Of a DNA stretch of 64,000 nucleotides, positions 41,448 through 56,200 are shown one piece after another. Location of the stretch: the sequence record PP449093.1. One strand, given 5' to 3'. Source of the stretch: Escherichia coli phage phiS. The notes beneath the pieces are model-generated. The model was not told the DNA's origin. It ran no database searches and was given only the letters and a program-made list of their open reading frames with translations. The first letter of the stretch is position 1. Each line of letters begins with the position of its first letter. The translations under genes were made by a program, and so were the position numbers.

Positions 41448-41720
41448 ATGTGCAACGAAAACAGCAAAGTGTTGGCAATTGCAGATAAAGTAGGTTACTG
41501 GAAATGCTGGGATGATATGGAGAAATTAGGCGGTCGCTATCTCGATAACTTAGAGTTGCATTATTGCCAAGCGCGTAATGCAGAAGTTGCGGGAGTAGCA
41601 ATCGAAGATATTCCGTCTAAAGTCTTCGGATTCTCTAAAGATGATACTCTAGAGTATGTTTTTAAGGCTGTAATGGATCAAGCATGGGAAGACGCAGAGA
41701 CACGCGCTCTTGATTGGTGA
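41448..41720 (+). CDS. Hypothetical protein (90 aa)
   Basis: ATG after AAGGAGAA. Confidence 0.5.
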   Translation: MCNENSKVLAIADKVGYWKCWDDMEKLGGRYLDNLELHYCQARNAEVAGVAIEDIPSKVFGFSKDDTLEYVFKAVMDQAWEDAETRALDW

Positions 41721-41724
41721 TAAT

Positions 41725-41943
41725 ATGAACTGGTATAAAATTTGGAAAAATCAGGTGGAGGCTTATCTAGGGTATAAGCCCACCGACGAAGAATTACTCG
41801 ATGCAATGTACGAAGACGGACTAAATCCGAAAGTAGCCGCGCAAGAATACGCGGAATGGATGAAGGTCGAAAAGAACCTAGAGGCAACGAAAAATTTTCA
41901 CGAAAATAATAAAAAAGCAGTTGACGCCAAAGGTCATCGGTAG
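41725..41943 (+). CDS. Hypothetical protein (72 aa)
   Basis: ORF from the track with adjusted start. Confidence 0.45.
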   Translation: MNWYKIWKNQVEAYLGYKPTDEELLDAMYEDGLNPKVAAQEYAEWMKVEKNLEATKNFHENNKKAVDAKGHR

Positions 41944-41949
41944 TATTAT
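41921..41949 (+). promoter_or_regulatory. Early promoter (TTGACG, 17 nt, TATTAT) with CCCATACCGAAACGAA leader
   Basis: Lies inside the 3' end of the upstream ORF. Confidence 0.4.
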
Positions 41950-41983
41950 ACCCCCATACCGAAACGAAGTGGAGGAAATAAAA

Positions 41984-42226
41984 ATGGTTAAAGTTAATGT
42001 TATCGAAGTTGCACTGTACGACGCTGGAATCTTCCTGAATGAAAAAGAAGCTGCCGTCCTCGACGAACTGAAAACTGTTTTTGTTCCTGTAGTAGAAGAC
42101 GTAGAAGCAATCAAAATCGCTTCTCGTAAACTGTCCCGTGAAGCATTTGACATGATTGATCCGGTTTTCAAAGTTATGCACGAATGCGCGGTTATGATGA
42201 CCGAAGAAGAAGCGAAAAATTTCTAA
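41984..42226 (+). CDS. Hypothetical acidic protein (80 aa)
   Basis: ATG after GTGGAGGAA. Confidence 0.5.
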   Translation: MVKVNVIEVALYDAGIFLNEKEAAVLDELKTVFVPVVEDVEAIKIASRKLSREAFDMIDPVFKVMHECAVMMTEEEAKNF

Positions 42227-42233
42227 AAACCAG

Positions 42234-42262
42234 TTGACGTAAAGAAACGGGAGTAGTAAGAT
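42234..42262 (+). promoter_or_regulatory. Early promoter (TTGACG ... TAAGAT) containing hairpin gggagtagtaagatactccc
   Basis: The same 20-nt palindromic element recurs in the promoter at 42512. Confidence 0.4.
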
Positions 42263-42291
42263 ACTCCCATACCAAACGAAAGGAGAATCAC

Positions 42292-42504
42292 ATGAAATCT
42301 ATCGAGCAAGTAGTAACAGAGTTTATGAGCTACGAAGGAAACCGCATCTTTGGACGTTCTCAAGTTCGCGAGATCGTGGAAGAGGTCTCTGGAGAGTTTG
42401 CGGAATCTGGTCACGTTACCACGCAAGAACGTAAAGAAGAAGCAGTAAACCAGATCATGGCTATGCAGAAAATGCGTATTAATGCACGAGCGGGTAAAAA
42501 TTAA
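42292..42504 (+). CDS. Hypothetical protein (70 aa)
   Basis: ATG after AAGGAGAA. Confidence 0.5.
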   Translation: MKSIEQVVTEFMSYEGNRIFGRSQVREIVEEVSGEFAESGHVTTQERKEEAVNQIMAMQKMRINARAGKN

Positions 42505-42511
42505 AAAGTAG

Positions 42512-42540
42512 TTGACACCGGATTAAGGGAGTAGTAAGAT
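42512..42540 (+). promoter_or_regulatory. Early promoter (TTGACA ... TAAGAT) containing hairpin gggagtagtaagatactccc
   Basis: Duplicate of the element at 42249. Confidence 0.4.
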
Positions 42541-42573
42541 ACTCCCATCAAGAAAAACATTGAGGAATATATT

Positions 42574-43332
42574 ATGAAAAACATTATCGCTGCTATCGTT
42601 CTTTCTGCTACTGCTTTCGGTGCTAACGCTGCGTCCTTTGATTGCGCTAAAGCGACTACCAAATCAGAGAAGTTTATTTGTGCTAACGAGTCTATCTCCG
42701 CGCTGGATTCGAAACTTCATGAAGTATATGTTAAGGCTGTTAAGATTGATCCGTCTCTTAAACAAGAGCAACGCAACTGGAATAAAACTGTTCGTGATAC
42801 AATGATCAATATCGGGCAGATTCAGCCACTGGAGGCTGTATACAACGCTCAAATCCAAAACTTGATGAATGCATTACCTAAAGAAGAAACCGCGTCAGAA
42901 AGCGATTCAGAGACTTCTGTGAAGGTTGACGAAGAACAACCGAAACAGGAAGAAAAAGTGGTGGAAGAACCGAAGGTCGAAACTTTTACCTATCAATGCA
43001 CCGTTCGTTATGAGTGGAGTATGAAAGATGGAATTTCCACAAAAATTAAAGAAGCGCCACTGTATGCCAAATATGGAAATCAACCAGGAGATCTTAAAGT
43101 AACCATTAAAAATGGGAAGATGGTTGATTTTGTATACATTGATGAATACAACGTACACAAAGCAAACGTACAAGAAACCGTTATGACTAAAGGCGGGTTT
43201 TATAAGAATGTTGGCAAGAAAGATCTATATGAATACTCCGTTTTCGAACCAAACGACGGAACTATTCGATTTGAAAAACGTCATCCTACATTCGGTGGCG
43301 CAATTGATGTAGATCAATACGTTTGCAAGTAA
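42574..43332 (+). CDS. Secreted protein with DUF1311/LprI-like (lysozyme-inhibitor-type) N-terminal domain (252 aa)
   Basis: Signal peptide MKNIIAAIVLSATAFGANA, then SFDCAKATTKSEKFICANESISALDSKLHEVY, the DUF1311 signature as I recall it. Acidic linker and a C-terminal domain follow. Confidence 0.65.
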   Translation: MKNIIAAIVLSATAFGANAASFDCAKATTKSEKFICANESISALDSKLHEVYVKAVKIDPSLKQEQRNWNKTVRDTMINIGQIQPLEAVYNAQIQNLMNALPKEETASESDSETSVKVDEEQPKQEEKVVEEPKVETFTYQCTVRYEWSMKDGISTKIKEAPLYAKYGNQPGDLKVTIKNGKMVDFVYIDEYNVHKANVQETVMTKGGFYKNVGKKDLYEYSVFEPNDGTIRFEKRHPTFGGAIDVDQYVCK

Positions 43333-43343
43333 GAGGTTAAATT

Positions 43344-43631
43344 ATGCAATTCAATAACATGAAGATTACAAAAGATTGGTGGAAGGCGATGCAAGATACT
43401 CCAGAAACCAAATTAAGCGAGACAACAACCACGATACAAGTTGATTACGAAGATCCGAAAGACATATACAGGGAAATTTTAATCAGAGAGCTTATAAAAG
43501 CTGGTAATTATCAAACACCGGACGGTCTTATTGACATGATGGTTAAAGGTCTGTATAGTGGTAAAAATCCAGATGTTTTACCGTGGTACGAGGGATATTT
43601 TAAAACATATCGTGACCACAACCGAAAATAA
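43344..43631 (+). CDS. Hypothetical protein (95 aa)
   Basis: ORF from the track. Confidence 0.5.
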   Translation: MQFNNMKITKDWWKAMQDTPETKLSETTTTIQVDYEDPKDIYREILIRELIKAGNYQTPDGLIDMMVKGLYSGKNPDVLPWYEGYFKTYRDHNRK

Positions 43632-43654
43632 GTTGTTGACGTGAGGATTATATT

Positions 43655-43846
43655 ATGGTAATTTTTAATCGCGATGGTATCATAGTTCGGCAACATCCAT
43701 TCCTTGAATACTATCAGGTTGAACAATGGGGATATGGGGATTGCTCGCGATCATACGGTCAAAGCTGGGGATACCGTACAGTTTTTGAATCAACTAATAT
43801 TGACAAAGTACGACAGAAAGTTTTAGAACTTCTTAACGATAAGTGA
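43655..43846 (+). CDS. Hypothetical protein (63 aa)
   Basis: Preceded by TTGACG and a GAGGA RBS. Confidence 0.45.
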   Translation: MVIFNRDGIIVRQHPFLEYYQVEQWGYGDCSRSYGQSWGYRTVFESTNIDKVRQKVLELLNDK

Positions 43847-43856
43847 GGATTACATC

Positions 43857-44225
43857 ATGGAAATTCAAAACAATTACGAAAAATGTGTTATTATCAATGA
43901 TTTGCAACGTCAATTGCATCATTACGAAACCGATTATAAAACATCAACAAAAACCGGAAAGTTGAAAGTGTGGGAAGTCTGGTATAACCGAAACTATCTG
44001 GGAAGCATCCACAAACTTGATCGCAGTGATGTTTATACAATGCATGTGGGCGCTTGTGGTGAATCGGATGTAGCATTTAATTTCATGGAAGCACTTGCAT
44101 TCTATGTAGAATATCTGGTAGACTATATCGAGTTGGAAGAGGAAGTGGTAGAATTGCTTCCTCCACCGGAAGAAGCGCCGGAAGCAACGATCCTGAAAGC
44201 ATTAAAGAAAATCTTTGTTAAGTGA
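43857..44225 (+). CDS. Hypothetical protein (122 aa)
   Basis: ORF from the track; acidic C-terminus. Confidence 0.5.
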   Translation: MEIQNNYEKCVIINDLQRQLHHYETDYKTSTKTGKLKVWEVWYNRNYLGSIHKLDRSDVYTMHVGACGESDVAFNFMEALAFYVEYLVDYIELEEEVVELLPPPEEAPEATILKALKKIFVK

Positions 44226-44233
44226 GGTGAACT

Positions 44234-44566
44234 ATGAAAAATGTACTGATTGTGTGGGAACTGATTCCAGAAACTACTGAATTATACATGGTACAGGTTG
44301 ACAATAAAGAATTTGAAATTCTGAAACGCGTCAACTGCAAATATATTAACATTGATGACATGACCCCAGAAATGGACTATGTAAACTATGCTCTCATGCA
44401 GCCTAGTTGGATTATGGATGAAACTAAAGCAGACGCCGAATCACTGGGTGTACCGGAAGAAGTATTAGCGAAATGGCATCAATTCAAAGTTGAAATAAAA
44501 GAGGGTGAACCGTTTATTCCTAGCGGTATGATCGATGCGGTGATTGTAACAGGTTTTCATCTGTAA
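44234..44566 (+). CDS. Hypothetical protein (110 aa)
   Basis: ORF from the track. Confidence 0.5.
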   Translation: MKNVLIVWELIPETTELYMVQVDNKEFEILKRVNCKYINIDDMTPEMDYVNYALMQPSWIMDETKADAESLGVPEEVLAKWHQFKVEIKEGEPFIPSGMIDAVIVTGFHL

Positions 44567-46622: not shown

Positions 46623-47405
46623 CTAAACAGCCGGTCCGTAAATGGCTCCGCGATTTTGCCACGTTGGGGCAGACCCTATAACAGCATAACCGGCATCGCC
46701 GCCATTGTATTCATATCCTTGACCACGAATATTACATCTACCTCCTGCGGCGCCTACCTCACCACCGCTTCCGCCATTATAGACATCGTTCATGGACCCC
46801 GAACCAGGCGCATAAAGAGTACCAGCAGTTGCGCCTGATTGCATGTTGGCAGATCCACCAGCAGCACCAAACGGACGACCGCCGCCACCACCAAAAGTTA
46901 ATTTCATTGGTTTCGTAGGAGAATAATACCCACCACCTCCACCGCCACCGCCGCCAGCGATAGCACCGCCATTATTAATTCTTAGCCTCCCACCAATATC
47001 ATTTTGAATACAATGACCCCCAGCTGATCCAGGACTATTGCTACCGCCATTCCCTCCACGACCATACATCGTTACGCCATGTATATTCAACTGAACATAT
47101 TCATTCGGTGTATCTCCATACATAAAGAATAAAGGAACATCTTTAGAATATGATACTAAATCTCCAGTGATATTAAACACTATAGGTGTACTACCTGCCT
47201 CAAAGCATCTATCACGGAACCACTGACCATTGAAGTTATGGTCTGCTCCAAGTGTATGAATAATTTCTCGCGAGCGACCTGCAAATTGACTCATCCAGCA
47301 AGGAACACCCAATCTTAATTGACCAGCCGCTTGACTCATCCATCGTTGTCCTGTTTCATTTACGGATGAACTACCAATCCAACCAGGAACACCAACTACT
47401 GCCAT
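46623..47405 (-). CDS. 38: Receptor-recognising adhesin gp38 (T2-type, glycine-rich motifs)
   Basis: Poly-Gly segments [12 protein letters not shown] and [15 protein letters not shown] typical of T2-like gp38; follows gene 37. Confidence 0.8.
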
Positions 47406-47441: not shown

Positions 47442-50342
47442 TTAGAATTTAAAATATTTACTAATTTTGCGAGCAATTTTAGTGAAGAAAGGAGTTTTCA
47501 ATTCTTTAATTTCTTCACTCATTTCCTGAATAGCCTTAATTAAAAGAGCATTCACAGCAGAGTTAGAAATTGTCAGAACATCGTCTGGATTATCAAGATT
47601 GCCAACCTTTGAAGATTTTACAGCTTCCGGTAATATTTCTTGTAAATCCTGTGCGATAATGCCGATCTCGTGACCGATAATTTCACGGTCTTTAAGAGAT
47701 TTAACTTTATCGTAAGTTTTCACTTTCAGTTTGCCAATTAAACTTAACGCATTTCCTGTATAATCTTCTATATTGTCTTTAAGGCGACGATCTGAACGAA
47801 TATACACATCGTTAAAGCTACCGTTTCCGGTTGCGTTAAATTCACCGCTTGCGTGGAATTGGAACTCCCCAGCTTGAACATGAAGAACAGCGGCTGCGGT
47901 ATTATTACCATCACCGGGACAATGAACGTCCATAGCAGCGATATATTGACGCCCCCAATCAACCGCTTTCCAAACAGCATGAGCACTGTCAATACTTTTC
48001 TGGCAGTCAACCAACAAACCAGCAGGGCGGTCTCTCCATGAAACATATGCACCACCATCAACTTCACCACGGATAAGTCCTTGATCTGCGGCATAAGGAA
48101 CACGCCCTTCCAGTTGAATCATTGCGCCCTTAAAGTGATGACTAAATGGTCCACCGTGGTTATTGCGAATATGTAAAATACCCTCATCGGTCGCCCAAAT
48201 AACAGCCTTTTCTGTTTCGCTAGCATCTCTAAACCAGATATGGCGTGCACCAGTTGAGTTTTTGATGGTTATTCCATTAGGTCCACGCACGGTCAAAGCA
48301 CCGGATACATCAAATAAAACGGTGTCATCTGTTCTACGTTCCGTATAGAAGTGATAACCTTTGGAATCACCGATTTCCATTACTGCCGCGCGTCCAACTT
48401 CTGAATTTCCCCAATTGTTGATAGAGAATCGTTCAGAGCTATTATTCATCTGATTTAGGTATAATGTACCGTCAGTGAAGGTTTCGCCAAAGAATCTGGT
48501 TTTAACGCCGTTAGTACCCCCCACGCGTTCAAATTCAGCCAAGAAACCTTTGGAATCTCGCATACTCAAAACGTTATTGCGTCCTGTATTACTGTTACCC
48601 CAATGGATTAATTCAATATAGTCCATTGACTGACGAGACCCTGATCTAAACACCATATTATCTTCGATGCGGGTGCTACCATCAATTCCCAGATGTAAAC
48701 AGCGTGCGGTAGCTGTGCCACCTAGATCTAATCCACCTTCGGCGAAATCATAGCTGAATGGTCTACGAGTATTCCAATTTCCAAAAGAATCTTTTAAATC
48801 GGTAGTCAGTATATGGAAACTAGTACCATCATTTCTAAAAATTAAGCCATAATTGCCACCTTTAACAGCCAAACGAGCATTTTCAGATAATGCAACTTCG
48901 CTATTCATTACAATTTTCTGGCCTTTACCGCCAGTAATATGCAATTCACCGTTTTCGATCAAGTTTATTGAGTTTTGACCGTTATCGTTCCACCAAATAA
49001 AATCTTTGGTCGTCAAATCACCAAAACCAAACCAGCCATTACGAACATCTTGACCAGTGCGATAATCCATAAAATTAAAATGGCTTGCTTCGTTTGGTCC
49101 TCGACGAATATCAATACCAGCATTAGAACCGGAACCTAAGCCACCATCGATGGTCAATCTACGAATATGCAAACCGGTTACAGCCGAAAGCAATAATTGT
49201 TGGGTTACATCGGTATATCCAGTAGCAAGACGATAATTTTGGTCATCAACACTTTCGTGCCAGATAGTGGCAGGACCAGAGCTTCTAAACCGACGTAACA
49301 TCTTTTTAGCATTTGTCGGTTGTTCGTTCATATGCTCAATGTCATATTGTCCTTGATGGTTGCCAGCAAAATTTAATGTTCCACGGTTACTGAAACTGTT
49401 AAAAGAGCGTATTGTATATGCATCATAGATATGATCAGCTACAGGTTTTTCGCCTACATATTCAGGTCGATCAAGTACAGTTAAATTAACATCGCTGGAC
49501 GCTTGATATTCAGCCATTACCATATTAGTAAATTCGAAGTAACATGCATAGATATCATAAGTGTCATCACCTGTATTAATGGCACAAAATTGATTTTCGT
49601 AACCGGAAACATGATGATACGCAACAAAGTTAATTCCTTTAGGCGAACCGTTGCTAGTCCTTATAACAAGTTCAATAATATTACATTGTCCAGTTCGTCC
49701 TACGTTCCACCCATTTCCACCAATCAATCTAATTTTCAAGCCACGTCCGTCATTTTGCGGAATAAAGGCGGTAGCAATTTTAAACCATCCACTTTCTACA
49801 CCAAAGTTGATGGTCTTCTGGAACATCCGATCTACTTCTTGCTTGCTGTATACATTCAATTCCGACGGACTAGGCTTATCTCCTTCGTGATACATGCGAT
49901 ATGAATATGCTAATACACCATCGGCATTATAACCATAGGTTTTTACAGTAGGGACAATGCTAGAACCATAAGTAAAATCAAACCCACGAGCATGATTGAT
50001 ACCGCTAGGATGGGGAATATGCAAAGCAAGTGCTAGATGACCATCCATATCATTAGTGCGAAATGCCCCGAATTTGTCAAGATTTCGTGCGGTCGGATCA
50101 TCGAAATAGTTTGCGGTATTACTCCACACAAGGTCACCCACAACCACGCGACCGTTTACATTAAAGCCTTTGTCATAAACAGGAGGGCAGCTTAAATTAA
50201 CAATTTGCCCATCATCATTTTTTGTAAGCAGATATTGGTCTGCTAAGTTAATTGCCAACTCTCCCGGATTCATCGTACCAGCATCCGGTTTACGTCCGGC
50301 TGCGCTAGTGCGTTTAAACTGGATTCTGTTTAAATCTGCCAT
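47442..50342 (-). CDS. 37: Long tail fibre distal subunit gp37
   Basis: MADLNRIQFKRTSAAGRKP...GELAINL resembles the T4 gp37 N-terminus. The C-terminal ~120 aa look like an intramolecular chaperone domain. Confidence 0.9.
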   Translation of the reverse strand: MADLNRIQFKRTSAAGRKPDAGTMNPGELAINLADQYLLTKNDDGQIVNLSCPPVYDKGFNVNGRVVVGDLVWSNTANYFDDPTARNLDKFGAFRTNDMDGHLALALHIPHPSGINHARGFDFTYGSSIVPTVKTYGYNADGVLAYSYRMYHEGDKPSPSELNVYSKQEVDRMFQKTINFGVESGWFKIATAFIPQNDGRGLKIRLIGGNGWNVGRTGQCNIIELVIRTSNGSPKGINFVAYHHVSGYENQFCAINTGDDTYDIYACYFEFTNMVMAEYQASSDVNLTVLDRPEYVGEKPVADHIYDAYTIRSFNSFSNRGTLNFAGNHQGQYDIEHMNEQPTNAKKMLRRFRSSGPATIWHESVDDQNYRLATGYTDVTQQLLLSAVTGLHIRRLTIDGGLGSGSNAGIDIRRGPNEASHFNFMDYRTGQDVRNGWFGFGDLTTKDFIWWNDNGQNSINLIENGELHITGGKGQKIVMNSEVALSENARLAVKGGNYGLIFRNDGTSFHILTTDLKDSFGNWNTRRPFSYDFAEGGLDLGGTATARCLHLGIDGSTRIEDNMVFRSGSRQSMDYIELIHWGNSNTGRNNVLSMRDSKGFLAEFERVGGTNGVKTRFFGETFTDGTLYLNQMNNSSERFSINNWGNSEVGRAAVMEIGDSKGYHFYTERRTDDTVLFDVSGALTVRGPNGITIKNSTGARHIWFRDASETEKAVIWATDEGILHIRNNHGGPFSHHFKGAMIQLEGRVPYAADQGLIRGEVDGGAYVSWRDRPAGLLVDCQKSIDSAHAVWKAVDWGRQYIAAMDVHCPGDGNNTAAAVLHVQAGEFQFHASGEFNATGNGSFNDVYIRSDRRLKDNIEDYTGNALSLIGKLKVKTYDKVKSLKDREIIGHEIGIIAQDLQEILPEAVKSSKVGNLDNPDDVLTISNSAVNALLIKAIQEMSEEIKELKTPFFTKIARKISKYFKF

Positions 50343-53276: not shown

Positions 53277-56200
53277 TTAGTCTTCCCAGATAAAATCTAC
53301 GGTACGAGTCAGATTATTGGCAATAATTTTAACATTACCAACCTTGATCCAGTCACGAACCGTCATAGAGTTCATTAAACCACCTTCGGCAACCACTGCC
53401 CCGATTTCCTGAGCGGTAGGCTTGTTCTGTTTGGTGTAAATTTCGCCCCATGCGGTCCATTGACCATCTGTACCGGAACGGATATAATGCTTATGAGTAC
53501 CATCAGGCGACCAGATTTGGGTAAGGCCGTTTTCATCAGTACCCCATTGCATCAATGTACCATTTTTCTTTTCTGGGTAGGTTTCTTTGATGTTCTGGGT
53601 AGTAACTCGCATATTCCAGAAACCGATGTTACCGATTGCAGGAGCGGTTGCCGCGCTAGCTTCATGCTTAACAGAAACAATAGGCGCATTATCCATAGTC
53701 AGCTTACCGACCATTGTATCGCCAGCATTCTTAACAAACTGACGGTTAAGAACTTCGTCGGCGTTTCCTGCGTGTACGATCTGATATTTCTGTCCGGCGA
53801 TCTCTGTAGTTAACGTTTGATAACCTGCCTTGATGTTAACACTTCCACCGTGACCGATATTCAACATACCGTCTGGAGAGCGAGTCATTGCCGGATTGGA
53901 GTGGTCTACAATATATAAACCGCCTTGCTTCGCATACAGGTTACGACCTGCTATGAAGTCTCTATATGCTAACGCATCGCCGTCACGTTCCATAGCAAAG
54001 GCATAATGTTCAACAGATCCAGAATCGTCAATCTTACAGAAAGCGATAGCATCACTATTAACTGCTTGCGCCGTTCCAGTGCCACCAACGATAATAGACC
54101 ATGAGTTTTCCATACCTTCTGACAAGGTTGTGCCATGCAGAGTAATTCCGGTGTGACCGTCAACTCCACGCTCACCCAATACCAGATGACCATTACTCGG
54201 ATCGTCAGTCGAGTTCTTAGTCACAAACAGAGTTTCAAAGGAACCGGATTTTAAGCACTCTAAATCGCCCTTCACGTTAACGTTTTTATTAAACGTGTAA
54301 TTGCTCTCAATGGTCTGGTCAATGTCTCTACGCGCCCATTTAGCGGCCTCTACGTTACCCAATTTCAAACTATTCTGAGCGGTTGCCATTTTAGGTAAGA
54401 AATTAGCAAGTGCGTAGTTTAATCCTTTCGGAGTTACCGCAATCCCATCATGCTGATATTCATCAAGCTCTTGAGTAGAACCTTGCAGATTATCACCAAC
54501 AAAACAGTTTTCCTGAGTAGCAACTTTCAAGAATCCACGACGCGCTTCGGTTGCTTTCCATGTATCCTCTGTATGGACAACATATTTGAAATTCTTCGGA
54601 GAAATTGCTACATTGTCCAGTGCACCAGCGACGGTTTCGGCTTGAGTACCAACTCTGATAATACCTTCTTTACCTTCGGTGGCCTTTTTGCCTTGCAGCT
54701 TTTTAGGAGTAATGATCGTGGCGTCATCTTCTCCCACATCGGTAAGCTGACTAGTAGCAACTTTCGCGACACCTTTTGTATCTTCGGTTGCATCAAGACC
54801 GCTGATCGTGATACCTTGCCATAAATCACCCGTAAGGTTAAGCCCCTGATTCGGATCTACTCTCAAACGCTGTGCTTTCTCAAAGAAGGTTTTAATCTTC
54901 AATGGAGTAGAAATGCGAGCATCGTCACGACCTGCGTCAAATTCCGGCTGAGTTGCAATTTCTGCTAAACCATGTAAAGTTTCAGTTGCGCGGCGAGTAT
55001 GCAGCTTTTTAGGCGTGATGATATGGTTATCACTCTGGCCTAAGTTAGTTTCTTCCTGCGTAGCAATTTCAGCGATACCAGTACGCGATTCGGTAGCAGT
55101 ACGCTTGGTTAACGTGCGAGTAGTGATCAGCATTGCATCTTGCGGGGTTGCTTCTGTAGCCCCTTGCACTTCCGCGTCAGTTGCCAGATAACCAACACCA
55201 CGGGAAGTTTCGGTCGCCTTAACTTCGTTGATGTTTTGTGGTGTAACGATTTTAGCATGGTCATTGATGTTATAGACCCCTGTACCAGCTTCGCCACGTC
55301 GAGCGGCAGCACTACCACCCATCTGAACAATTTCAGCGATACCAGCAAGGTCTTCCGACGCGCGACGTTCCTCTAATTTCTTAGGGGTGATTGCGCGTGT
55401 ATCGTCTAAACCTACGTTGGTTTCTTCCTGAGTTGCAATCTCCAACACGCCTCGATGTTCTTCGGAAGCAACACACGCATTTAGTTTTTTAGGAGTTACG
55501 ATCACATCATCAAGAAAATTTGCCCCTGTATGTTGGTGCGTTTCTTCTTGAGTAGCGATTCTAGCAATACCTCGACGCGTTTCGTTTGCAGTCTTATTGG
55601 CAAGCATTTTTGGCGTTACTGCAACTTCGTCGCTAGGATTATCTTCATGGTTTTTGTTGGTTTCGTCCTGTGTTGCAAGCGCAATAACACCAACACGCTC
55701 TTTACGAGTCGGATCTACTCGTTCTACGATCGGGTGAGCATGTGCTACCAACCAGTGTTTCTTACCATCATCACCTTCTGAATAAGAGAACTCCAGATAA
55801 GGTACATAATCATTTGCAGCGTTGAAAGACAATTCAGACACTTCCTTCCATGTATCGGTCCCATTGAACGGGTACTCGCTACGCTTAGGAAACTGAACCA
55901 TGTTTTTCTGCATAAGGATTTTTGTATCCTCTTCTGCGGTAACGATTCGGCAATTCTGGTTTCCGTGCATATACTGCATAGAAATTTGGATACGATCACC
56001 ATGCTCGACGCTGGTCGGTAAAGTCAAGGTAACATCACGATCACCAAATACTGCAACATAGCTATTGGGGGACAAGCGAGTATCACTAATGATAGGATTC
56101 AAGCGAACAGACTGATCACCATCCCACAAACGCCATAAGTTTTCCGGTTTGTCAAATATGAATACACCATGACCGCTACGCTTACCAACAATTTCTTTTA

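Follow-up and report, generated by a model that had tools for sequence, protein, structure and literature searches.

The Escherichia coli phage phiS (sequence record PP449093.1) encodes, on the + strand at positions 42574..43332 of the 64,000-nt stretch of DNA analysed here (the window, to which phage coordinates refer), a predicted exported protein composed of two modules with very different evolutionary histories: an N-terminal LprI/DUF1311 domain that is close to invariant, and a C-terminal β-barrel that is hypervariable and has the hallmarks of an exchangeable cassette. The gene has also been captured by E. coli prophages, and it is found in phages in which neither Sp (Spackle) nor Imm, the exclusion proteins of T4, is detectable. 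We consider it possible, at a probability of roughly 0.35, that the product acts in the periplasm, where it would bind and neutralise proteins that attack the cell envelope from outside, the main candidates being the wall-penetrating machinery of superinfecting phages.

The open reading frame (ORF) starts with ATG and specifies 252 aa plus a stop codon, which agrees exactly with an earlier reading made from the letters of the window alone (henceforth the sequence-only reading). The source is an RB49-like T4-type coliphage of the genus Krischvirus: positions 41500-44500 are 99.6% identical to phage vB_EcoM_011D4 and 96–98% identical to relatives of RB49. Within this genus the ORF is the ortholog of RB49ORF260c, with a full-length match to phrog_14799 (function unknown), and essentially all Krischvirus records contain a homolog (∼60 tblastn matches against 59 records that bear gp5). 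Phage records label the orthologs ‘hypothetical protein’; UniProt names the RB49 protein ‘Lysozyme inhibitor LprI-like N-terminal domain-containing protein’ and the Prokaryotic Genome Annotation Pipeline names the E. coli copies ‘lysozyme inhibitor LprI family protein’. The LprI/DUF1311 assignment itself is already in databases and is not new.

By inspection the N-terminus is a canonical signal peptidase I signal, in which MK is followed by the hydrophobic stretch NIIAAIVLSATAFG and by ANA↓AS (the arrow marks the predicted cleavage site); no lipobox was found by the same inspection. A crude hydrophobicity scan picks out the protein as the sole clear Sec-type ORF of the window. Distant homologs all place an AXA site directly before the sequence ASFDC (AQA↓ASFDC in F48, VNA↓ASFDC in AS-sw and AFA↓ASFDC in ev099), and cleavage at this junction thereby gains comparative support. 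The three lines of evidence bear out the cleavable signal peptide of the sequence-only reading, and from them we infer that the protein is very probably periplasmic.

The DUF1311 signature recognised in that reading is also recovered by the hidden Markov model (HMM) of Pfam, as a marginal and partial match: PF07007 (LprI, formerly DUF1311) reaches 24.8 bits, where the gathering cutoff is 22 (E = 3e-5, residues 24-76), with profile positions 1-71 of 106 aligned and a fourth helix predicted beyond the matched part. Eight of nine scanned relatives or alleles pass the same cutoff (23.1–30 bits), the ninth, P0005, lying just under it at 20.6. Cys24 and Cys36 of the domain are invariant in the aligned set of 21 copies from phages, metagenomes and E. 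coli, which also gave the mean identities of the two halves cited below. An AlphaFold2 model, run on an alignment of 20 family members, places helices at residues 30-37, 41-58, 60-80 and 83-100 with low to moderate confidence (predicted local distance difference test score, pLDDT, ∼45–79); the low values arise because the alignment has almost no diversity in this part of the protein. A profile of the N-terminal domain has no significant match in the PDB, the only one returned being 6ar7 at E = 0.75, and a scan of the protein against NCBIfam gave nothing meaningful.

The combination of an LprI module with a variable C-terminal domain extends beyond Krischvirus. Relatives of the protein are found in Klebsiella phage F48 (gp108), Aeromonas phage AS-sw (gp009) and the lambdoid phage ev099 (gp35). 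These have only the signal peptide and the ASFDC LprI module in common with the phiS protein, and each has a different C-terminal domain, of ∼120 aa and with its own cysteine pair. Because each of the three differs C-terminally, the arrangement can be regarded as a wider phage theme.

The sequence-only reading missed the second half of the protein, both its fold and its variability. Residues 135-251 are modelled as eight β-strands at high confidence (pLDDT ∼87–92), forming a predicted barrel that spans the C-terminal 118 aa. Cys142 in the first strand and Cys251 in the last are invariant and are predicted to close the barrel. The model resembles the peptidoglycan-hydrolase and lysozyme inhibitors PhiA, PliC and ACP, but no better than it resembles generic small barrels, and a Foldseek search of the PDB with it returned no match below E = 0.01. 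At the level of sequence, Pfam MliC (PF09864) does not match the protein even at E values up to 10; a profile of the barrel run against PDB sequences found no MliC, PliC or PhiA chain and only two sub-threshold matches; and the full protein has no match among PDB sequences up to E = 10. MliC and PliC inhibitors carry conserved loop motifs that insert into the active site of lysozyme; across the barrel types no conserved loop motif of this kind is present. The likeness to MliC is suggestive, because LprI of Mycobacterium tuberculosis consists of DUF1311 followed by an MliC barrel, but it is not specific, and on sequence criteria we treat the barrel as an orphan and do not class it as MliC.

When an HMM of the barrel was run against 1.84 billion representative sequences, the only matches were to its own family and to two giant repetitive proteins, P0021 (5191 aa, E = 4e-7) and P0022 (1479 aa, E = 2e-6). 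The scores of these two are scattered over 24 and 6 short stretches, respectively, and the matches may be compositional or may reflect a distant repeated β-domain. A few further uncharacterised small phage barrels are found in BFVD.

The contrast between the two halves is stark. Mean pairwise identity is 96% over residues 1-103 and 34% over the barrel, where some pairs fall near 10%; at least six barrel types can be distinguished, across which only C142, G153 and C251 are invariant. Purifying selection acts on the constant module (ratio of nonsynonymous to synonymous substitution rates 0.02–0.34), in which the few amino-acid replacements are found mostly in the signal peptide and the linker. 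The first two thirds of the linker are conserved, and the alignments place the left recombination boundary of the cassette at its end. Comparison of the DNA with that of phage JSE reveals the same pattern: identity is 92–100% up to ∼42950, drops to 22–47% across 42951-43318, recovers to 85% over the first ∼60 nt of the next gene and, after another drop, reaches 98% from 43617. The conserved 5′ end of the downstream gene (∼43344-43400) defines the right flank. As the divergent stretch is bounded by conserved DNA on both sides, the barrel is a cassette. A pattern of this kind, constant in one part and variable in another, is typical of antagonistic interfaces.

How far the barrel types are related is less clear-cut. 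Alignment of the JSE-type and RB49-type barrels with hhalign gives a probability of 2.8%, with no detectable homology past the first 21 residues. The JSE-type barrel is also modelled as eight strands with the same cysteine frame (pLDDT 63–81), and it is only this common frame and the similar predicted topology that suggest homology of the two.

We considered whether the cassette comprises two genes, the barrel and the ORF downstream of it (the RB49ORF259c homolog), and rejected the idea: the JSE and Phi1 versions of that ORF are alike despite different barrels, and it has no signal peptide. For the same reasons the downstream ORF is better seen as a recombination flank than as a partner. It is itself a mosaic, 47–51% identical to the JSE and Phi1 versions, with conservation concentrated in the first 16 aa and in the core LIxELIxAGNYQTPxGLIDMMV.

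Chromosomal copies of the gene occur in 26 of 5,426 complete E. coli genomes. The identity of their DNA with the window (94–96%) is confined to a stretch that begins at the start codon, or 6 nt before it, and ends within the linker, and at least three barrel types are found at the prophage locus. In all four loci examined the homolog is the final gene of a prophage that splits hicB. The prophage of strain H2 (∼35 kb) carries genes for a serine recombinase, for structural proteins of siphovirus type and for a lysin of the M15 peptidase type. Upstream of the prophage copy the DNA is unrelated to the early-promoter element of the phage described below and contains its own promoter-like site (TTGAAA-16-TAAAGT); downstream there is a strong terminator-like hairpin of 10 bp followed by a T-run, both elements being matches to consensus only. 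The layout is that of a moron: a predicted promoter-gene-terminator unit placed at the end of a prophage.

Details of one locus may be added. At 2523565-2559160 of NZ_CP028733.1 a prophage of ∼35 kb splits the antitoxin gene hicB, leaving hicA intact beside the truncated gene; the prophage has a serine recombinase and siphovirus-like structural genes, its lysin is of the M15 D-Ala-D-Ala carboxypeptidase type, and neither Pfam nor PADLOC recognises several cargo ORFs that lie, unannotated, near the LprI-barrel gene.

The prophage copies also reveal where they came from. In H2 and DEC5A, the two loci read at sequence level, the stop codon is followed by ‘ATGAAATTCAATAGCATGAAGATTACAAAAGACTGGTGGGATGCGATGAAAGCTAACCACCAGAACGATATTAATTAA’ or a closely similar sequence. 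These 25 codons are a stub of the gene that lies downstream in Krischvirus, in the form of the JSE/Phi1 type, and such a remnant shows that transfer ran from Krischvirus to prophage. Synonymous divergence between phage and prophage copies (0.09–0.23) is no greater than among phages (0.12–0.18), which suggests recent or repeated exchange. Because a temperate phage keeps the gene as a stand-alone terminal unit, the protein can be taken to work without other T4-like proteins, and presumably the gene benefits the lysogen. Scanned with PADLOC and Pfam, the genes beside it in the prophage returned no match to a defence system.

The observation that Imm is not at its T4 position can be extended, since neither Imm nor Sp is detectable anywhere in the RB49-type genome by tblastn or in the annotation. 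T4 Sp, T4 Imm and the Sp of F48 were used as queries against the window and the other 100 kb of RB49 and returned nothing credible, the best match (E = 0.049) lying inside the gene for gp41. As a positive control, T4 Sp finds the Sp of F48, a phage that encodes a canonical spackle, at E = 3e-11. The curated annotation of RB49 lists rI, t, gp5 (the tail lysozyme) and a putative endolysin, whereas neither sp nor imm is listed. As far as the sensitivity of tblastn reaches, the argument from a vacant niche holds for both Sp and Imm. The putative endolysin of RB49 (ORF102c, RB49 54719-55108) is only 129 aa long; its type bears on the range of muramidases that an inhibitor in the periplasm could encounter.

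The same annotation bears on the proposal, also made in the sequence-only reading, that the protein inhibits lysis. Such a factor, or an antiholin acting on holin T, would be periplasmic, as this protein is predicted to be, and the gene lies ∼2.3 kb from holin t. However, RB49 already has an annotated rI, the gene and t lie on opposite strands, and the gene is kept in an unrelated prophage with different lysis genes, including the M15 peptidase; t itself is 97.7% conserved between the window phage and RB49. A role in lysis inhibition, or as an antiholin, is accordingly very unlikely.

Phage T5 masks its receptor with the protein Llp to block re-adsorption, which raises the question of whether the barrel, as the variable domain of a phage-encoded periplasmic protein, might act similarly, by attaching at the periplasmic face to the outer-membrane receptor that its own phage uses. 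Between the window phage and RB49 the tail-fibre module is sharply divergent (gp37 is 46% identical and the gp38-type adhesins 57%), so that the two phages are expected to differ in receptor specificity, yet their barrels are ∼99% identical. Barrel type follows neither gp37 nor gp38. The same barrel types moreover occur in an unrelated siphovirus-like prophage, and the protein is not a lipoprotein. We regard receptor masking as very improbable. In RB49 the small gene dc5 is located beside gp37, and gp38 is elsewhere in the genome.

The tail lysozyme behaves differently from the fibres. Across all 59 Krischvirus records gp5 is 98.8–100% identical, and these include JSE, Phi1 and GEC-3S, which carry different barrels. 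Both gp5 and the N-terminal module are invariant across the genus, and should the protein make contact with gp5, or with another conserved muramidase, this module is the candidate for it.

Precedents for such contacts come from other LprI-domain proteins. Etsi4 of enterohaemorrhagic E. coli, a periplasmic protein consisting of DUF1311 only, neutralises the cell-wall-targeting type VI secretion system (T6SS) effector Etse4 on co-expression (PMC12981562), and in Salmonella and Pantoea LprI-domain genes adjoin genes for transglycosylase- or lysozyme-like effectors with which they form predicted pairs (PMC8867033, PMC9796082, PMC12135965). The recurring theme appears to be the binding of lysozyme- or transglycosylase-type enzymes in the periplasm.

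On the reading that we prefer, the phiS gene would direct the early synthesis of a Sec-exported, soluble periplasmic protein in which two disulfide-stabilised modules are joined by a flexible acidic tether. By stoichiometric binding it would neutralise proteins that attack the envelope of the infected or lysogenic cell, the likeliest targets being tail-associated peptidoglycan hydrolases, and similar wall-penetrating apparatus, of superinfecting phages. The near-invariant DUF1311 module may contact a conserved partner, a lysozyme- or transglycosylase-fold enzyme, by analogy with the DUF1311 immunity proteins; the hypervariable barrel may be the arms-race surface, recognising a variable partner from competitors. 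The outcome would be superinfection exclusion, together with resistance to lysis from without, in a genus that has no Sp and no Imm. It is by analogy that we infer the inhibitory activity, the targets and the exclusion phenotype. Capture by prophages as a stand-alone unit fits an autonomous protective role, and the idea of a Spackle analog, put forward in the sequence-only reading, is plausible. What stands of that reading is a very probably periplasmic, early protein in a genus without detectable Sp and Imm, an interpretation that the DUF1311 immunity precedents and the capture by prophages now favour; lysis inhibition is unlikely, and the argument from the name of the domain does not stand.

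A more ambitious form of the proposal, which we put forward tentatively and consider rather unlikely in full, would make the protein part of a modular, cassette-swapping periplasmic exclusion system common to virulent T4-like phages and prophages, that is, a new polymorphic envelope immunity. The constant DUF1311 unit would serve as inhibitor or anchor and the barrel as recognition domain, and recombination in the conserved flanks would swap the latter; which competitor phages or periplasm-acting toxins are excluded would differ from one barrel type to the next, and in Krischvirus the system would be a functional replacement for both Sp and Imm.

Several points weigh against the proposed exclusion role. 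The name of the domain offers no argument for lysozyme inhibition: M. tuberculosis LprI consists of DUF1311 and MliC, its inhibition of lysozyme is attributed to MliC, and in no protein has lysozyme inhibition been demonstrated for the PF07007 domain; ScwA, a periplasmic PF07007 protein, showed no role in lysozyme resistance and instead modulates the lytic transglycosylase MltD (PMC7933661). The barrel does not co-evolve with the phage’s own gp5, which is invariant. PADLOC matched the protein to no known defence or exclusion model, and no link to any partner, experimental or co-evolutionary, was found. Finally, the absence of Sp and Imm is based on tblastn and annotation, and remote analogs of either could exist.

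The activity of ScwA suggests a different role, in which the DUF1311 domain binds a host lytic transglycosylase or hydrolase such as MltD and thereby stabilises the sacculus or tunes lysis while infection proceeds. Free periplasmic ScwA controls the level of MltD and its overproduction lyses cells (PMC7933661); an invariant N-terminal module would fit a conserved host partner. This explanation leaves the hypervariable barrel unaccounted for, because the periplasmic housekeeping proteins of E. coli are conserved, and in ScwA the LprI domain is C-terminal and part of a different architecture (PMC7933661). We think it distinctly unlikely.

Alternatively, the protein could be an orphan immunity protein directed at periplasm-acting bacterial toxins, such as T6SS peptidoglycan hydrolases and bacteriocins, that shields the infected cell from its neighbours during the latent period and the lysogen permanently. 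Immunity to T6SS effectors is the only demonstrated role of DUF1311 (PMC12981562; predicted in PMC8867033, PMC9796082 and PMC12135965), the hypervariability of the barrel matches the evolution of polymorphic toxin-immunity systems, in which the effectors themselves are polymorphic, and the moron position in the prophage suits a trait of lysogenic conversion. Yet no effector gene adjoins the gene in the phage or in the prophage, where its neighbours are prophage genes and hicAB. The known DUF1311 immunity proteins are single-domain, and the short relatives found here have 113-149 aa. It is also hard to see what a virulent phage with a short latent period would gain from a gene that all members of the genus nevertheless carry. 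We consider this alternative unlikely.

The label ‘early gene’, given in the sequence-only reading, is consistent with the expression signals (Table 1). The gene is located in a variable region between gene 52 (topoisomerase) and holin t, among small phage ORFans, and is preceded by a sigma-70-like promoter (TTGACA-17-TAAGAT, 42512-42540) that overlaps a perfect hairpin, GGGAGTAGTAAGATACTCCC. Hairpin and promoter correspond to the promoter-early stem-loop (PeSL) cassette published for RB49 and phi1 (PMC2839356), a paper that makes no mention of the RB49ORF260c gene. Because the promoter sits in this published early-promoter element, to describe the ORF as an early gene in a variable cluster is reasonable. 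The PeSL stretch before the gene is conserved in JSE and Phi1 and missing upstream of the prophage copies. An identical second copy of the hairpin is present at 42249-42268; each copy overlaps the -10 element of a TTGAC(A/G)-17-TAAGAT promoter, and the two precede a 70-aa ORF (42292..42504) and the LprI-barrel gene, respectively.

A location in a variable accessory region and an early promoter of the PeSL type might also be expected of an anti-defence factor, acting here on an envelope-located, strain-variable component of a host defence; a variable domain would then suggest a variable target on the host side. The prophage copy, in contrast, is laid out as a moron expressed for the benefit of the lysogen, no candidate periplasmic partner was found, and PADLOC returned no match for the protein or its neighbours. 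We consider such a factor improbable.

Table 1. Positions of the LprI-barrel gene, its parts and neighbouring features in the window.
Feature	Position	Strand	Remarks
Early promoter within PeSL element	42512..42546	+	-35 TTGACA 42512-42517, -10 TAAGAT 42535-42540
PeSL hairpin GGGAGTA-GTAAGA-TACTCCC	42527-42546	+	perfect hairpin, overlaps promoter
Ribosome-binding site GAGG	42562..42565	+	8 nt 5′ of ATG
Coding sequence, RB49ORF260c ortholog	42574..43332	+	252 aa plus stop
Sec signal peptide, residues 1-19 (predicted)	42574..42630	+	predicted cleavage ANA↓AS; inspection, hydrophobicity scan, homolog junctions
LprI/DUF1311 helical domain, residues 20-100	42631..42873	+	Pfam match residues 24-76
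Acidic E/K/P/Q-rich linker, residues 101-134	42874..42975	+	predicted disordered, pLDDT <50
Eight-stranded β-barrel (predicted), residues 135-252	42976..43329	+	hypervariable cassette, DNA ∼42951-43318
Downstream gene, RB49ORF259c homolog, 95 aa	43344..43631	+	no signal peptide, no Pfam match
Gly-rich gp38-like adhesin, 260 aa, 57% identity to RB49 gp38	46623..47405	-	adjoins gp37
gp37, 46% identity to RB49 gp37	47442..50342	-	

We found no paper on phage LprI proteins. Three features of the system appear to be undescribed: the architecture, in which DUF1311 is combined with an orphan barrel as a swappable hypervariable cassette; the universality of the gene in a genus without Sp and Imm; and its passage from a virulent phage to prophages of E. 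coli. To our knowledge, superinfection exclusion in T4-like phages is understood only for Sp and Imm of T4, and for genera that, like Krischvirus, have neither, the gene is a concrete and easily cloned candidate for envelope defence. If the proposed role is correct, it would be the first clear function for a phage DUF1311 protein and would help to settle what DUF1311 does, the name ‘lysozyme inhibitor’ having been borrowed from the neighbouring MliC domain. The natural barrel variants, borne on a constant scaffold, constitute a ready-made panel for specificity swaps. Phage therapy makes use of krischviruses such as phi1 and JSE, and copies of the gene carried by prophages might alter the susceptibility of clinical E. 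coli. The gene is at present a strong experimental lead and not a demonstrated new mechanism.

The protein can be compared with several known systems. LprI of M. tuberculosis (Rv1541c) is likewise exported and has, in the order predicted for the phage protein, an N-terminal PF07007 domain followed by a small eight-stranded β-barrel. Rv1541c, however, is a lipoprotein, whereas the phage protein is not, and the latter has a long acidic linker and a hypervariable barrel that matches neither PF09864 nor, by sequence, any MliC or PliC entry of the PDB. The DUF1311-only T6SS immunity proteins (Etsi4, and the predicted SED_RS06230 of S. Dublin and Pantoea orphans) have a signal peptide and PF07007 in common with it, but they are single-domain proteins of ∼110-150 aa encoded beside an effector; the phage-borne protein has an additional barrel and no effector neighbour. 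Salmonella ScwA resembles it in being a free periplasmic PF07007 protein with conserved disulfide-forming cysteines, and differs in being all-helical, 275 aa long and chromosomal, with the LprI domain at its C-terminus (PMC7933661).

Among phage proteins, T4 Spackle (Sp, gp61.3) is comparable as an early, Sec-exported, disulfide-containing periplasmic protein, properties that are predicted for the protein described here. Mature Sp is a flat helical bundle of 75 aa that is highly conserved among homologs and binds the gp5 lysozyme (PMC7677548). The mature phiS protein, in contrast, has 233 aa, in which a helical domain, a linker and a β-barrel are predicted to follow one another and half of which is hypervariable; blastp of T4 Sp against it aligned only 8 residues (E = 0.64). 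To the proteins of the Cor and Llp exclusion type it has no relation in sequence or fold. With prophage morons and exclusion genes of that type it nonetheless shares a genomic setting, as the E. coli homolog is a terminal prophage unit that encodes a predicted exported envelope protein; among such morons, its origin in a virulent T4-like phage and its cassette-type variable domain are unusual.

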